Shown here one piece after another: positions 11,182 to 51,484 of a stretch of 64,000 nt of DNA; position 1 is the stretch's first letter; every line of letters starts with the position of its first letter. The stretch spans positions 16,783-80,782 of the forward strand of contig NZ_JAFKFW010000017.1 in the NCBI RefSeq assembly GCF_017308015.1. The letters run 5' to 3'. The position numbers and the translations under genes were made by a program. Under the pieces are notes generated by a model. That model was not told the DNA's origin and did no database searches. It worked only from the letters and a program-made list of their open reading frames with translations. The DNA comes from Bosea sp. (in: a-proteobacteria). Its GTDB lineage: Bacteria; Pseudomonadota; Alphaproteobacteria; Rhizobiales; Beijerinckiaceae.

Positions 11182-12774
11182 ATGGGTCTGTTGAACTGGC
11201 TGAAGAGCGAGAAGGCTGCGCCTCCCGCTTCTCCCGCTCCGGCACAGCCGCGCCCCTCGTCATCGTATATGCGCGGCGAGCGCAGCCCGACGTTCATGGG
11301 TTGGCAGCCCGCGCTCAGAGAGCCTGCGGCCGAGGTGCGCGATAGCTGGCAGATGGCGGCCGCCCGCAGCCTCGACGCGGCTCAGAATTCCGGCTTCATC
11401 GCCGGGGCGATCGATCAGGCAGTCGCGAACACCGTTGGCAATGGCCTGCGTTTGAACGCTCGCCCTGATGCAGACGCCTTCGGTCTCACGACGAAGGAGG
11501 CAGGAGACCTCGGCCGACGGATTGAGACCGCGTTCCAGCTCTATAGCGACAGCGCGATCGACGTGGATGCCGAGGCTAGGAAAACACACGGTCATCTCCA
11601 GGCTTCCGCGTTCCGGCACTGGCTCGGCACGGGCGAAATCTTTGCCGGGCTGCCATTCTTCGTCCGGAAGGGCGGCGCCTGGGCGACCAAGGTTCGGCTC
11701 GTCCCTGCCAGCCGGGTCGCGCCGCGTTCCGACGGAACCGGCAAGCTGGTTCATGGCGTCCGATTGGACACCTACGGCGCCGCGATGGGCTACCTGTTCC
11801 GATCCGGGAGCGTCGATCGCATCTTCGGGACTGAAACGGAGATTCCGGCGCGGGATCGCTTCGGCCGACCCGTTGTCGTGCATTGCTTCGACGGTCTGCC
11901 TGGCGCGGTGCGTGGCATCTCGCCTTTGACACCGGTCCTTCGAGTTACCCGCCAGTTCGATCAGCTCGCCGATGCCACGCTGACAGCTGCGATCATCCAG
12001 GCCGTATTCGCCGCCACCATTGAGGGGGACGCGCCGACGCAGGATATGCTCCGCGCCCTCCAGACGCCGCAGGAGGCGGCCAAGGGCGATGTCGCTCCGA
12101 TGGACGCATGGATGGATGCGACGGCGGGCTGGTACGATAACACCAAGATCGACCTCGGCCTCGCCGGCAAGTTCGTCCACCTGTACCCCGGCCAGAAGCT
12201 GAATTTTCACGAGGCGAAGCTCACCGGCGGCAATTACGAGCCCTTCGCGAAGTTCCTACTCCGCGAAGTGGCGCGCTGCCTGGGGCAGACCTTCGAGAGC
12301 GTCGCGGCGGATTGGAACGGGACGACGTACACAGGAGCCCGGATCGCGACGACCGAGATCCACGCCGTCACCCTCTATCGCCGCAAGAACATCCTGACTC
12401 CGTTCTGCCAGGCGACCTATGAGGCTTGGCTGGAGGAGGCGATTGACCTTGGCCGGGTGAAGTGGCCGGGCGGGATGGCGGCGTTTCTCGCAAACCGCCC
12501 CGCAGCTTGCAAGGCCATCTGGCGCGGCACGTCGAAGCCGGTAGCTGACGACCTCAAGACGGCGAAGGCTCATGAGATCTGGGCTCGCCTTGGCGTCATG
12601 ACCGACGAGATGATCGCAAACGAGCTCGGCGTCGATATCGAGGACGTCTACGAGCAGCGCCAGCGCGAGATGCAGATGCGCCGCGAGTACGGACTGCCAG
12701 ATCCGACCTTCGCTGGGCTCGCAAAGGACAGCGGGTCCGATCCCGCGGATGATCAAGATGCCGAGGCGGCGTGA
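11182..12774 (+). CDS. Portal protein (lambda gpB family)
   Basis: VG.GL..NA.PD, HGV..D.YG....Y, RGISPL.P, GVMT motifs; 530 aa after terL. Confidence 0.93.
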   Translation: MGLLNWLKSEKAAPPASPAPAQPRPSSSYMRGERSPTFMGWQPALREPAAEVRDSWQMAAARSLDAAQNSGFIAGAIDQAVANTVGNGLRLNARPDADAFGLTTKEAGDLGRRIETAFQLYSDSAIDVDAEARKTHGHLQASAFRHWLGTGEIFAGLPFFVRKGGAWATKVRLVPASRVAPRSDGTGKLVHGVRLDTYGAAMGYLFRSGSVDRIFGTETEIPARDRFGRPVVVHCFDGLPGAVRGISPLTPVLRVTRQFDQLADATLTAAIIQAVFAATIEGDAPTQDMLRALQTPQEAAKGDVAPMDAWMDATAGWYDNTKIDLGLAGKFVHLYPGQKLNFHEAKLTGGNYEPFAKFLLREVARCLGQTFESVAADWNGTTYTGARIATTEIHAVTLYRRKNILTPFCQATYEAWLEEAIDLGRVKWPGGMAAFLANRPAACKAIWRGTSKPVADDLKTAKAHEIWARLGVMTDEMIANELGVDIEDVYEQRQREMQMRREYGLPDPTFAGLAKDSGSDPADDQDAEAA

Positions 12775-39375: not shown

Positions 39376-39415
39376 CGTTGCCCGCTGCGCGTCCGTGCGC
39401 ATAGCTTGTCTGATC

Positions 39416-39628
39416 ATGCCTTTGTCATCACTGCACGACCCAGCCGATCTTGCCCGCGCTCAAGGCGCTTTGGAAATCGCCTGGACACAGATCAAACCAA
39501 CGGTTCGGGAAGAGGATCGCGAGCGCGAGTACATCCGGCTAGCCTGCATCGTCGCGTCGTACGCCCTCGTCGCTCTCGACGAGGATGATCTGGCGCAGCG
39601 AGCACTGGACCGAATTTCGCAGGGTTGA
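39416..39628 (+). CDS. Small helical protein, paralogue of 40720..40959
   Basis: DP.D.ARA..A.EIAW...DE.DLA.RA shared. Confidence 0.7.
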   Translation: MPLSSLHDPADLARAQGALEIAWTQIKPTVREEDREREYIRLACIVASYALVALDEDDLAQRALDRISQG

Positions 39629-40719: not shown

Positions 40720-40959
40720 ATGACCGAATCCAACCCGTTCGCTATCCTTGGGGACCCGCTGGACATTGCTCGGGCAGAGCGCGCGACGGAAATTGCTTGG
40801 AGCTATGTCGAAGCTGGCATCCCGTCTCCGGAGCGAGATCGGCAACGCATGCGGATGGTTTACGTGGTCGTGTCGCTGGCGATTGAGCGAGCGGACGAGC
40901 CGACCGACCTCGCGCATCGAGCGATCCGCCGCTTTCAAGAGCGGCAACTCCGGCGCTGA
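40720..40959 (+). CDS. Small helical protein, paralogue of 39416..39628
   Basis: Shared motifs; GAGGG RBS. Confidence 0.7.
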   Translation: MTESNPFAILGDPLDIARAERATEIAWSYVEAGIPSPERDRQRMRMVYVVVSLAIERADEPTDLAHRAIRRFQERQLRR

Positions 40960-40960
40960 C

Positions 40961-41248
40961 TCAGGTCTTTCCCTTTCGCGCGGCGTCGATCAACGCGTAG
41001 TGCTCATGGGTGTCGCCCCGTGAGATAAGGTTCTTCGAACCGCAGACGGAGCATCGATAGCGCAGGCAGATGTCGGGGATAGGTGTCTCGGGCGGGAGAT
41101 CGCTGACGTCGATCCCATTCCCGTAGCGCCGGCAATCGTTGCAGAAAATTTCGATCTTGCGCCTCCCGAGAGCCAGGTGGCTGCCCACAGTGGCCGGCTG
41201 TATTTCACGCCCGTCTCTGTCATAGGCGCGCCGTGGATTGCGTTTCAT
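40961..41248 (-). CDS. Zn-ribbon protein
   Basis: CNDC and CSVC pairs; ATGA overlap with 41245..41499. Confidence 0.75.
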   Translation of the reverse strand: MKRNPRRAYDRDGREIQPATVGSHLALGRRKIEIFCNDCRRYGNGIDVSDLPPETPIPDICLRYRCSVCGSKNLISRGDTHEHYALIDAARKGKT

Positions 41249-41499
41249 AGCGCCCTGATCTGCTCCTCGAATTCCTGCGGGATTGCACCGTGCCGCGCCA
41301 GCACCTCGAGATCGCTGACCTCGCCGGTTTCGTCATCGGCCGTGACGTGGATGACCGCTACACCCTCTGCGGAACGGCTCAGGCGCTCGCCCTCGTTCAA
41401 GGCGTGGGGCTTGGTCTTCGCCAGCACACGCTGACCGGGCACGAGCCGCTTTCGATGCGTCTTGAAGGGCTGCAGGAAGAACGTGTCGACGGTGGCCAT
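41245..41499 (-). CDS. Hypothetical protein downstream of the SOS box
   Basis: GAGGAG RBS; first gene of the leftward unit. Confidence 0.75.
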   Translation of the reverse strand: MATVDTFFLQPFKTHRKRLVPGQRVLAKTKPHALNEGERLSRSAEGVAVIHVTADDETGEVSDLEVLARHGAIPQEFEEQIRAL

Positions 41500-41522
41500 G
41501 GGTTGACTCCTCTGAGTGGTTT

Positions 41523-41537
41523 GTTCTCATAATGTTC
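41523..41537. promoter_or_regulatory. Alphaproteobacterial LexA (SOS) box GTTC-N7-GTTC
   Basis: GTTC TCATAAT GTTC is an exact consensus, in the ~60-bp gap between divergent genes. Confidence 0.8.
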
Positions 41538-41558
41538 TCATATCCGAGGACGCAAGCC

Positions 41559-41786
41559 ATGTCACCCGAACCAGCCGATCAGTATGTCGAAGACACGTCG
41601 CTGGACGCGGAAATCTCAGGAATCGTCGCGACGCTCTTGGAGGAGCACGGCTCGGAGCACGCCGCACTCAGGGCGCTGGCGCATGACTTTATCGTGCTGC
41701 TGGCCGACGCTGATCGGTCAGTCTCGCGCGGCTATCTGCGTGGTTTGTTTTCGCAGGGAGCGCGGCCGGCCCGCGAGCCAGAATGA
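41559..41786 (+). CDS. Small hypothetical protein
   Basis: GAGG RBS, ATG 41559; first gene of the rightward unit. Confidence 0.7.
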   Translation: MSPEPADQYVEDTSLDAEISGIVATLLEEHGSEHAALRALAHDFIVLLADADRSVSRGYLRGLFSQGARPAREPE

Positions 41787-41789
41787 ACC

Positions 41790-42167
41790 ATGGGGCCGCC
41801 GGACGAAGAAACACCTCTGCGGGATTTCCCATGGGTCGTTGTACGGCTTCGGTGCACGTGGTGCAGACGCGGCGGGAGCTACCGCGTGGCGGATATCGCC
41901 GCGAAGCACGGCAGCCGGATTACGATCGGCATGATCGTCGTTGCCTTCATGGAAGGCTGCGAGTGGCGGCCCTGGAACCCCGCCCGAAAGCCTCAAAAAT
42001 ACGGAATGAGATGCGGCGGCTACTGCCCGGACCTGCGCAGGCCCGACCCGCCCGATCTGCCGCCGTCGATGATCGGGCTCAACCTGATCGAGGGAGGCAA
42101 GGATGAGCAGCTACCAGCAGAGCCAAGCCGGCAGCCCCGACGTCGTCGTGTCGGTTCTTCGGATTGA
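41790..42167 (+). CDS. Cys-rich putative Zn-binding protein
   Basis: CTWC plus later C, C and C; FPW motif. Confidence 0.7.
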   Translation: MGPPDEETPLRDFPWVVVRLRCTWCRRGGSYRVADIAAKHGSRITIGMIVVAFMEGCEWRPWNPARKPQKYGMRCGGYCPDLRRPDPPDLPPSMIGLNLIEGGKDEQLPAEPSRQPRRRRVGSSD

Positions 42168-42468
42168 CCGGGAGACCATGGAGCGCCTGCCGCTGACTGA
42201 CGAGCAGGCAGCCGTTGCGACTGCCGCTGTAGGTGCTGTGTTCGCGGCTGCAGGCGTCACACCGAACCTCGTCGCCACCGCTGAATGGGAGGTCGAGGGT
42301 TGGGACATCGCCGGTTTCCCGGAGCCGGGGCCGGGAGAATGGTTCGACATCCTGATGGTCAAGGGCGAGGCGCACGATGCCGCAGATCAGGCATTGGCTG
42401 CGAAGTGGCCGGAACTTCAAGGCCAATGGACCGAGCTTCAGCTATACGCCCCCGCCGAACCCGCATAG
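42103..42468 (+). CDS. Hypothetical protein
   Basis: GGAGG RBS; lies between the Zn protein and SRAP. Confidence 0.6.
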   Translation: MSSYQQSQAGSPDVVVSVLRIDRETMERLPLTDEQAAVATAAVGAVFAAAGVTPNLVATAEWEVEGWDIAGFPEPGPGEWFDILMVKGEAHDAADQALAAKWPELQGQWTELQLYAPAEPA

Positions 42469-42477
42469 GCTCAGGCC

Positions 42478-43209
42478 ATGTGCAATCTCTACAGCCACAC
42501 CCGGAACGTCGAGGCGATGCGCAAGCTCTTCGCCAAGTTCAACGATGCCGGCGTGAACGTGCCGCCTCTGCCGGGGATCTTCCCGGACTACGCCGCGCCG
42601 ATCGTCAGGAACGACGAAGGCGGGCCGCGGCTGGCGATGACGCGCTGGGGCATGCCGTCATCCAAGAAGGCGCTGCTCGACGCCGCCACGAAGCGCGCTG
42701 ATAAGCTGCGCGCGAAGGACAAGGATGTCGACTTCGACCACCTTCTCCGCATGGAGCCCGATGGCGGCACCACGAACGTCCGCAATACCTCGAGCTCGCA
42801 CTGGAAGCGTTGGCTCGGAGTCGAAAGCCGATGCCTGGTGCCCTTCAACAGCTTCAGCGAGTTCGACTGGAGCACCAAGCAAGACGTCTGGTTTGCATTC
42901 GGGGAGGAACGGCCTACAGCCTTCTTCGCCGGTATCTGGGCGCGCCAGTGGACGTCCGTCCGCAAGGTGAAGACCGGCGAGGAGACGATCGACCTCTACG
43001 CCTTCCTGACGACCGATCCGAATGCCGAGGTTGGCGCCATCCACCCGAAGGCTATGCCGGTAATCCTGACGACGCCGGAAGAGTGCGAGACCTGGATGAC
43101 GGCGCCATGGGAGCAGGCGAGGGCACTTCAACGCCCTCTGCCGGATGGCTCGCTCGATATCGTCGCCCGCGGTGGGAAGAAGGATGGCGACATTACTGAA
43201 CGACCTTGA
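42478..43209 (+). CDS. SRAP / HMCES-like abasic-site processing protein
   Basis: Starts MC; RWG.P, TNVRN, RCLVP...F.E, FAGIW, IH.KAMPVIL motifs. Confidence 0.95.
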   Translation: MCNLYSHTRNVEAMRKLFAKFNDAGVNVPPLPGIFPDYAAPIVRNDEGGPRLAMTRWGMPSSKKALLDAATKRADKLRAKDKDVDFDHLLRMEPDGGTTNVRNTSSSHWKRWLGVESRCLVPFNSFSEFDWSTKQDVWFAFGEERPTAFFAGIWARQWTSVRKVKTGEETIDLYAFLTTDPNAEVGAIHPKAMPVILTTPEECETWMTAPWEQARALQRPLPDGSLDIVARGGKKDGDITERP

Positions 43210-43245
43210 TTGAAAAATTGACGGGCTTCGAACGTCGATCGGCGC

Positions 43246-43530
43246 TCACTTCGGAGTGGTGTTTTCCCGCCGCTGCGTGTCCTCATCGATGGCCGCCGTG
43301 CTCTTGCCGCCACCTGGCTTTACAAAGCCAATCATCCCAATGACAGCTTTCACGCCCATTGTGATCCAAGTGAAAAAGCTCGGTTTAGCCGCCGGACTTT
43401 CTGGAATCGTAGTTGGTACTGAAGCTATCGGTGCAGGCTCAGGAGAAAGACGTGCGACAAGCCGATCATAATCGGATTGAGTGATCTCGCCATTGGCAAG
43501 AAGAATTTGAAATGCTTGTCGCGCAGTCAT
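43246..43530 (-). CDS. Small protein with a SHOCT-like N-terminus and one hydrophobic segment
   Basis: LL.NGEITQ.DYD; lower-GC patch. Confidence 0.55.
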   Translation of the reverse strand: MTARQAFQILLANGEITQSDYDRLVARLSPEPAPIASVPTTIPESPAAKPSFFTWITMGVKAVIGMIGFVKPGGGKSTAAIDEDTQRRENTTPK

Positions 43531-49826: not shown

Positions 49827-49876
49827 CCGGCCTGTCACGCCGGAGGTCGCGGGTTCGAGCCCCGTCGCCCGCGCCA
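49827..49876 (+). other. attR core: 3' 50 nt of tRNA-Asp(GTC)
   Basis: Anticodon arm CCGGC-CTGTCAC-GCCGG, T-arm GGTTCGAGC, CCA end; acceptor 5' strand and D-arm absent. Confidence 0.9.
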
Positions 49877-49959
49877 TGTATCTCTCTGAAGATACTCGTC
49901 TTTTCTTCCTCTCGAAAATCTCGGAACGTCTCACTTCGGAATCGCCAGGCCGGCAATTT

Positions 49960-50429: not shown

Positions 50430-50975
50430 GACCGCATCGATCTCCTTGCAAGACTGGCCGGGATCAATGCCCAGATCAGCTATCGGCGCCGGTCGAGATT
50501 TCATAGCGGCAAGCCGTCTATCGTGGTCGACAACACCTTGGCGCGACAGTTCGATGTCGATGCGCAGGAGAAGGCGTGGTGGGTAACGGACATCACCTAC
50601 ATTAGGACCCCGGAGGGCTTCGCCTATTTGGCTGTGGTGATCGACCTGTTCTCCCGCCGCGTCATTGGCCGGTCACTCTAGAGCCGGCAGGTCACCGACA
50701 TCGTGCTGCAGGCATTGCTCATGGCGGCGGAAACCGAAGGCCACGGTCCTGGTCCACTCGGATCAGGGTTCCCAGTTCACCAGCATGGATTTGGCAGCCT
50801 TCCTAAAGCACCACAATCTTGAGCGTTCGATGAGCCGACGCGGGAACTGCCACGACAACGCCGTGGCAGAGAGCTTCTTCAATCTGCTCAAGCGTGAACG
50901 AATCCGGCGCAAGATCTACCGGACGCGCGAAGAGGCAACCCAGGACGTGTTCAACTACATCGAGATGTTCTACCC
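50430..50975 (+). pseudogene. IS3-family transposase (OrfB, DDE core) remnant
   Basis: W.TDITYI, YLAVVIDLFSRR, HSDQGSQF, SRRGNCHDNAVAESFF, YIEMFY; broken by TAG at 50679 and a frame change. Confidence 0.9.
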
Positions 50976-51484
50976 AGAAATCAAGAACCGAACCACGTGC
51001 GCAAACGGATTTGTTGGCCGTTGCGTTGGCCGATCTGTTGCCAATCCGGAATCGAGCTGCTTGATTTCTCAATGCGTTAGATCGAAAACGCATCTCCGTC
51101 CCTGGGCACCATCGCTTTTCAATGGCTTAAGGCCTAGCGCTTCAGCGATTTCATGAGCCTTTGTTACCGCCGCCCGTCCTAACGGCGTTCCGCTTGCAAT
51201 TCTGAGTTCGCTCACGCAGGTACCGCCTGTGCGGCGGCTATCTTCATGGCAGCCGATATCCCCATGTGGTCTCCGGCAGCCGCATCGTCATGCGCTAGCT
51301 CGCGTATTCGCCCAAGGAAGCGTTGACGCGGCCGGCGGATGCGGAAACGATGAGGTATGCTTGCTGCTGTGGCTCCCGCGTGCCGGGGCGCTGATCGGCC
51401 TGGTCGACGACCGCGACGCGTCCGCGCGAAGGCGCGTACCTTGCCGCAGAGCAGTCACGCCCCGATCCCCTGGAGTTCCCGACC

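Follow-up and report, generated by a model that had tools for sequence, protein, structure and literature searches.

The question raised by this locus is what a short direct repeat does between two back-to-back gene units of a Bosea prophage, and which repressor reads it. The repeat lies in a 64,000-nucleotide stretch of Bosea sp. DNA (C25:16783-80782, hereafter the window) from a 4.9-Mb genome of 66% GC whose encoded proteins best match Bosea. Positions given below without a contig name are those of the window. Two genes, p84 and zn95, run leftward from the repeat, and four genes, p75, cys125, p121 and a gene for an SRAP protein, run rightward. We consider it likely that the repeat is a single operator of the host LexA placed across two back-to-back promoters, and that DNA damage releases both units, which encode SRAP together with accessory SOS proteins.

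A LexA-type box shared by two divergent units

The box, GTTCTCATAATGTTC, is found at 41523-41537 and is a direct repeat of the form GTTC-N7-GTTC, common to both divergent units. It sits in the gap between the divergent start codons of p84 and p75 (41500-41558), which measures 59 bp and has a GC content of 49%. The initial annotation had described an exact GTTC-N7-GTTC box forming an 11-bp direct repeat. The box is indeed exact at these positions, but the repeat is not a perfect one, since its units TGTTCTCATAA (41522-41532) and TGTTCTCATAT (41533-41543) are identical at 10 of 11 bases.

On the left side of the box, p84 is an open reading frame of 84 amino acids (41245-41499, minus strand), and its stop overlaps the start of zn95 (open reading frame at 40961-41248, minus strand), which encodes a basic Zn-ribbon protein of 95 amino acids with the motif CNDC...CSVC. 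On the right side, all on the plus strand, p75 (41559-41786, with its ATG at 41559; 75 amino acids, acidic and helical) is followed by the open reading frames of cys125 (41790-42167; 125 amino acids, basic, with four invariant Cys) and p121 (42103-42468; 121 amino acids, acidic). The SRAP gene (42478-43209, Pfam PF02586) comes last, and directly 3' of its stop lies a terminator-like hairpin with a T-rich stretch behind it (43243-43258, plus strand), which is a consensus match only. The cys125 and p121 reading frames overlap by 65 nt and the remaining rightward junctions measure 3 to 9 nt, and such overlapping or short junctions fit an operon organisation.

The GTTC-N7-GTTC motif is the LexA motif of alphaproteobacteria (PMC3323433). 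In the host genome, AT-rich boxes of this kind precede recA, lexA, ssb, comM, a radical-SAM gene, a DUF763 gene and a DnaA_C-like gene, all of them Pfam-confirmed, and the same type of box also precedes two putative imuA genes. We scored the genome, which holds 123 matches to the bare pattern, with models of these host SOS sites. Using a nine-site model, the box of the cassette ranked 14th genome-wide and scored above the site of lexA itself. Using a seven-site model restricted to the Pfam-confirmed sites, it ranked 21st, just under the lexA site, and the held-out putative imuA sites ranked 3rd and 12th. The significance of the operator comes from its genome-wide rank in these models, its position between two start codons and its conservation in related loci, and not from the bare pattern.

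Conservation of the box in Bosea and beyond

A scan for relatives of p84 gave 29 related loci from about 20 Bosea genomes, with up to three loci per genome. The exact box (GAAC-N7-GAAC) was present in 26 of these 29 loci, in 24 of them at -38 from the p84 ATG. Two of the three other loci had one mismatch, and the third was rearranged, its upstream region having been replaced. In the alignment, the majority fraction reached 0.99 for the eight core bases of the box, which are the most conserved intergenic positions, compared to 0.84 for the spacer and 0.57 for the adjacent variable flanks. Codon positions 1 and 2 of p84 scored 0.96, and third positions scored 0.68, with 1 of 83 invariant. Two other intergenic blocks, GGCTTGACTCC and GAGGACGCAA, were invariant as well, and each joins a ribosome-binding site to a hexamer that resembles a -35 element and would belong to the opposite promoter. 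Every computational test available, by host-site models as well as by conservation, therefore bore out the assignment of the box as an alphaproteobacterial LexA-type operator.

The genes around the box were less constant. When a match had to span 70% of the query or more, p75 was found beside the box in 19 of the 29 Bosea loci (22 when shorter matches are included), cys125 in 18 and a full-length SRAP gene downstream in 13. A zn95 gene followed p84 in three loci, and p121 was present in a single one (L005, 89%). The conserved core is thus p84, the box and p75-cys125, often followed by SRAP, whereas zn95 and p121 are variable add-ons, so that the six-gene module of the initial annotation does not hold as a fixed unit. 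In many of the related Bosea loci, phage lysis genes lie on the p84 side.

Two decayed copies were also seen in the genome under study. One of them (C21:115112-115571) contains the box, a truncated cys125 and a p75 paralogue (76%, 115312-115536) without p84, and adjoins an 837-amino-acid open reading frame that looks primase-like by eye. Another (C8:41504-41961) contains a 5'-truncated p84 (93%) and a zn95 paralogue (60%, 41680-41961).

Outside Bosea, a profile search with p84 against 1.8 billion representative sequences returned about 100 distant relatives of ~80 amino acids, a family that we call fam84. Its members were detected in 83 of 401 Hyphomicrobiales genomes, belonging to 30 of 149 genera. 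An even sample of the class, comprising 400 genomes, yielded the family in only 7. Among 38 sampled fam84 loci outside Bosea, 15 had an exact box at most 250 bp upstream, compared to none of 38 control windows (binomial P about 1e-23 against the genome background). The boxes lay 18 to 154 bp from the start codon, mostly 18 to 60 bp. Box scores were bimodal, being either 13.8 to 27.7 bits or below 10.2 bits, and no control window (n = 38) reached 14 bits. Among the loci with a box are solitary genes on chromids of Rhizobium and on megaplasmids of Methylobacterium, and in the one Rhizobium chromid locus examined there were no recognisable phage genes among the neighbours.

One locus outside Bosea (L033, 3147-4255; GCA_001262595.1, LHCD01000001.1) combines a fam84 gene (38% identity with p84) with a p75-like gene of 73 amino acids on the opposite side of a GAAC-N7-GAAC box. 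Here, a UmuD-like gene (Peptidase_S24) and a UmuC-like gene (IMS) come after the p75-like gene, indicating the same fam84/p75-like head pair with a different SOS cargo. This p75-like/UmuD/UmuC layout did not recur in the sampled fam84 loci. One further boxed fam84 locus (L083) has a p75-like divergent partner, and many boxed loci of distant relatives showed no detectable p75 homologue.

Of 400 other Hyphomicrobiales genomes, 9 encode relatives of cys125. A LexA box was located upstream in 5 of the 11 non-Bosea loci, one of which repeats the layout of fam84 and cys125 diverging from a box, and SRAP was encoded downstream in only 1 of the 11. We thus discarded the notion of cys125 as an obligate neighbour of SRAP. 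Co-occurrence with SRAP and with SOS boxes had been suggested as a check on the cassette; outside Bosea, fam84 and cys125 genes had LexA boxes at part of the loci, and SRAP was usually absent.

Candidate promoters around the box

Measured from the two ends of the box, the p75 ATG is 22 bp away and the p84 ATG 24 bp away, which implies that both transcription starts must fall in or beside the box. For the rightward unit, a putative -35 element, TTGACT (41503-41508, plus strand), lies within the invariant GGCTTGACTCC and overlaps the p84 ribosome-binding site on the opposite strand. It is separated by 19 nt from a putative -10 element, CATAAT (41528-41533, plus strand), which is located inside the spacer of the operator and is conserved as CAT[AT]A[TC]. 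With a shift of one base, the minus strand shows CATTAT at the same place. For the leftward unit, the putative -35 element of p84, TTGCGT (41550-41555, minus strand), lies within the conserved GAGGACGCAA and overlaps the p75 ribosome-binding site GAGGA.

Alternative readings of the operator

Several observations weigh against a simple reading of the box as a host LexA operator common to two promoters and to the families behind it. The bare GTTC-N7-GTTC pattern is no commoner than chance in the 64-kb window, with one occurrence found for 1.65 expected. A strict sigma-70 consensus scan of the region returned no promoter, and the -35 and -10 hexamers assigned above require non-ideal spacers of 15 to 19 nt. 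Moreover, 23 of the 38 fam84 loci outside Bosea lack a box, so that SOS control cannot be uniform across the family. Finally, conservation reaches past the LexA core to GTTCTCAT in both half-sites. This extension may reflect promoter elements, and it could also point to a second binder. The prophage also encodes a mini-LexA, which may recognise the same boxes in this one phage.

We asked whether the cassette could be a LexA-gated induction device, in which p84 or p75 acts as an antirepressor of the coliphage 186 Tum/Gifsy type that, once LexA is cleaved, inactivates the repressor of the prophage and triggers lytic growth, with SRAP as a passenger. Small uncharacterised proteins right behind a host LexA operator in a prophage are the layout of LexA-controlled antirepressor loci, such as those of the Salmonella Gifsy prophages (Lemire et al. 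2011, PMC3121763), and in many Bosea prophages the module occupies accessory DNA close to attR. An antirepressor nevertheless appears improbable to us. The prophage encodes a separate cI-like repressor (C25:13179-13952) with a helix-turn-helix (HTH) and a Peptidase_S24 domain (31.8 bits against a cut-off of 23.3), which, having an S24 domain, can probably respond to RecA itself. An antirepressor should also co-vary with the immunity type, whereas the p84 homologues are 71 to 92% identical across many prophages (among the 120 listed). In addition, fam84 genes with a LexA box also exist as solitary genes on chromids of Rhizobium, as described above, and the small proteins resembled none of the antirepressor families of Pfam or PHROGs and had no match in NCBIfam or PADLOC.

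The presence of this separate HTH and S24 repressor rather suggests that the cassette is a second SOS input, apart from the immunity switch, which is in agreement with the independence from the phage repressor proposed in the initial annotation. The same annotation had offered antirepressors and abasic-site (AP-site) repair partners as possible roles for the small proteins. Both ideas lost ground, since the families of p84 and cys125 are LexA-boxed in other genera, in some cases outside recognisable prophage, and usually without SRAP. Together with the conservation of p84 and cys125 across many prophages, this distribution favours accessory SOS roles on host targets. By this distribution, p84 and cys125 are also unlikely to be obligate cofactors of SRAP.

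A second alternative concerns the identity of the repressor. At 30-362, the window encodes a mini-LexA that consists of a LexA DNA-binding domain only (LexA_DNA_bind, E 3.7e-15). It is 56% identical to residues 2-67 of the host LexA, and its wing, IRRLPNRAR, is identical. The box could thus be mainly the operator of this protein, or of another phage-borne LexA-like protein, and the cassette would then be phage-regulated and would mimic an SOS box. The shared domain and wing make it plausible that mini-LexA reads the same motif, and the conservation of GTTCTCAT in both half-sites would be in line with this reading. However, the box scores like host SOS sites. Moreover, when twelve other module-bearing Bosea genomes were queried with mini-LexA, only the full-length host lexA was recovered in each of them. 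These genomes keep module and box without mini-LexA, and the conserved box therefore cannot depend on a phage-borne LexA-like protein. In addition, mini-LexA is encoded in the rightward early/replication operon and, to judge by this gene order, is probably silent in the lysogen. We thus regard a mainly phage-regulated cassette as very improbable, and the on/off circuit with mini-LexA that the initial annotation had envisaged drops out as a part of the module. Control of the cassette by the host LexA is, as far as sequence comparison goes, well supported. Given its place in the early rightward operon, mini-LexA may re-repress SOS boxes during lytic growth.

Under a third reading, the repeat would belong to a promoter, or would be the site through which a protein of the module, for instance p75 or p84, regulates its own expression, and it would resemble GTTC-N7-GTTC by coincidence. 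This would fit the chance frequency of the bare motif in the window, the -10-like hexamers on both strands of the spacer and the overlap of conserved blocks with ribosome-binding sites, but we consider it barely credible, as the eight LexA core bases exceed all other intergenic positions in conservation, as the motif is also present at loci of distant fam84 and cys125 relatives whose promoters and spacers are unrelated while it is absent from the control windows, and as many boxed loci of relatives have no detectable p75 homologue.

The SRAP protein and its small neighbours

We then examined the proteins encoded by the two units. The product of the last rightward gene matched Pfam PF02586 over residues 1-226 with 67.8 bits (cut-off 27.1; E 1.3e-18), as well as phrog_1599 (E 2e-36) and PDB entry 2AEG (Agrobacterium AGR_pAT_140; E 1.6e-63), which we take to be an SRAP/DUF159 structure. 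The motifs MCNLY (Cys2), TNVRN (Asn100), SFSEF (Glu128) and IHPKAMPV (His189) were recognised by inspection only. A phmmer search with this protein did not reach YedK or HMCES directly, and the predicted active-site residues rest on this motif inspection. The predicted membership in the SRAP (YedK/HMCES) superfamily is secure at the family level. The final rightward gene thus encodes, as first annotated, an SRAP protein, with a PF02586 score above the cut-off and with Cys2 and the Asn, Glu and His motifs as putative active-site residues.

In contrast to SRAP, the five other proteins, p84, p75, cys125, p121 and zn95, had no family in Pfam, PHROGs, NCBIfam or PADLOC, apart from a weak match of zn95 to zinc_ribbon_6. 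There was likewise no Pfam match for 40 fam84 members. No match was obtained in PDB sequence searches with alignment profiles of fam84 and cys125, nor in a tblastn search of p84 against 50,697 phage records.

In Bosea, p84 has 151 homologues, with sometimes three copies per genome, and p75 has 264. An AlphaFold2 (AF2) model of p84 with a predicted local distance difference test (pLDDT) value of 89.6 shows an alpha/beta unit of the order hairpin-helix-hairpin-helix. The AF2 model of cys125 had a pLDDT of 70. In Foldseek searches of PDB with either model, and of BFVD with that of p84, nothing better than E 0.02 was found, and TM-scores were low. An alignment of 33 cys125 homologues revealed invariant C22, C25, C57 and C75, the conserved stretches RKPQKYG.KCG and PPDLPP and a disordered basic tail.

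The p121 reading frame is preceded by a strong GGAGG site 5 nt upstream of its ATG. It begins 65 nt inside cys125, where that gene encodes its conserved C-terminal part, and is read in a different frame; an alternative ATG is present near 42178. This gene could be a real overlapping gene, or its start could be over-called.

Proposed regulation and roles

The anatomy of the locus, the match of the motif, its conservation and the distribution of the families are observations. The binding of LexA, the placing of the promoters, the induction by damage and the functions of the small proteins are inferred from them, as follows. In the undamaged cell, a LexA dimer on GTTCTCATAATGTTC would block both promoters. 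After DNA damage, RecA-stimulated self-cleavage of LexA would free p84-zn95 in the leftward direction and p75-cys125-p121-SRAP in the rightward direction.

In the SRAP family, the N-terminal Cys crosslinks to abasic sites in single-stranded DNA (ssDNA) and shields them at replication forks. The SRAP of the cassette would act in the same way through its own N-terminal Cys, and this shielding could aid the lysogen at sub-inducing damage or, alternatively, phage replication in the damaged cell. The proteins p84, p75 and cys125 would serve as accessory SOS proteins, acting most likely on conserved host DNA-damage machinery and not on the phage repressor. The cI-like repressor would constitute a separate induction route.

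A more far-reaching proposal is that fam84 proteins are unrecognised small SOS modulators of Hyphomicrobiales, counterparts of DinI, RecX or PsiB that act on RecA, LexA or the stalled replisome, and that temperate Bosea phages captured them together with p75 and cys125 to tune the strength and duration of the SOS response in the lysogen. We put this forward as speculation and think it rather unlikely. If true, SOS tuning by fam84 would affect when the S24 repressor of the prophage is cleaved.

DinI is a LexA-regulated, often prophage-borne small SOS modulator of about 81 amino acids. The likeness of p84 to DinI is a functional analogy only. The two are similar in size, have an alpha/beta fold whose C-terminal half is acidic and occur on chromosomes as well as in prophages, and p84 would share the control by LexA. 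In contrast, the strand order differs, p84 did not match the DinI family (PF06183) in Pfam, and no DinI was found among the top 50 Foldseek matches listed.

Relation to known SOS-controlled loci

Tapias and Barbe reportedly described, in 1999 and to judge by the title, LexA-regulated divergent promoters of uvrA and ssb from Sinorhizobium meliloti. As far as that title tells, this is the nearest known layout, and both cases have a direct-repeat LexA box in a short region between divergent genes. The cassette differs in being part of a prophage, in driving uncharacterised small proteins and SRAP instead of core repair genes, and in having a gap of only 59 bp.

SRAP genes have been described in SOS neighbourhoods and in temperate phages, some of them with uncharacterised Zn-chelating partners (Aravind, Anand and Iyer 2013, PMC3765255). 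Similarly to other SOS-associated SRAPs, such as YoqW of the B. subtilis prophage SPbeta and E. coli YedK, the SRAP of the cassette has an N-terminal Cys, and it is prophage-borne and, by its predicted operator, tied to SOS. Unlike in the described neighbourhoods, its partners p75, cys125, p121 and p84 belong to no described family, there are no adjacent polymerase, Ku or ligase genes, and the operator is the alphaproteobacterial direct repeat.

The resemblance to the 186 tum and Gifsy antirepressor loci lies in a host LexA operator that, within a prophage, would drive small proteins independently of the phage repressor. There is, however, no relation in sequence or fold, the Bosea prophage repressor has its own S24 cleavage domain, and the p84 family is also found on a Rhizobium chromid without recognisable phage genes nearby.

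LexA-gated accessory cassettes in prophages, often with SRAP, are thus a recurring and partly described theme, and the regulatory logic proposed here is ordinary. The new part consists of three uncatalogued families, p84/fam84, p75 and cys125, which recur behind LexA boxes in several Hyphomicrobiales genera. With fam84 present in about a fifth of the sampled Hyphomicrobiales genomes, the three families are candidates for hitherto unknown members of the SOS regulon. The cassette itself offers a clean and conserved case of one alphaproteobacterial SOS box that would serve two promoters within 59 bp. Hyphomicrobiales include rhizobia and methylotrophs, and these families may provide an entry to what else the alphaproteobacterial SOS response does.

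Prophage context

The prophage is integrated in tRNA-Asp, of whose 3' end 51 bp recur without a mismatch at 49827-49877 (attR). The partner repeat, attL, lies upstream of the window at C25:4893-4943. This pair of repeats places the cassette inside a prophage of ~61.8 kb, 6.6 kb in from the right end. From left to right, the prophage comprises attL, a probable integrase gene, leftward early genes, a second LexA-type box, the cI-like repressor and a putative cro-like gene, then the replication genes with mini-LexA, the virion and lysis genes, the cassette, a leftward cluster and attR. The integrase was called by position and inspection by eye, with no Pfam match, and the cro-like gene by position only. 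The leftward cluster between the cassette and attR contains two DUF4326 genes, a DNA methylase gene and a gene for an HD protein. Just beyond attR, a fragment of an IS3-type transposase (50523-51156) precedes selD.

The second LexA-type box of the prophage, GAACGCAAGCAGAAC, is located at C25 11214-11228 and scored 17 to 22 bits. With the leftward early genes on one side of it and the cI-like repressor on the other, it precedes, by 52 bp, a gene for a Zn-ribbon protein of 79 amino acids (11280-11519 on the same contig). A LexA-gated antirepressor would fit the position of this box better than that of the cassette studied here.

Two paralogous genes for proteins of ~78 amino acids, which are 39% identical (39395-39628 and 40720-40959), flank the block of small genes between the lysis genes and the cassette. 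Contigs C33, C55, C8 and C16 carry more copies of these paralogues, as do several of the related prophage loci in Bosea.

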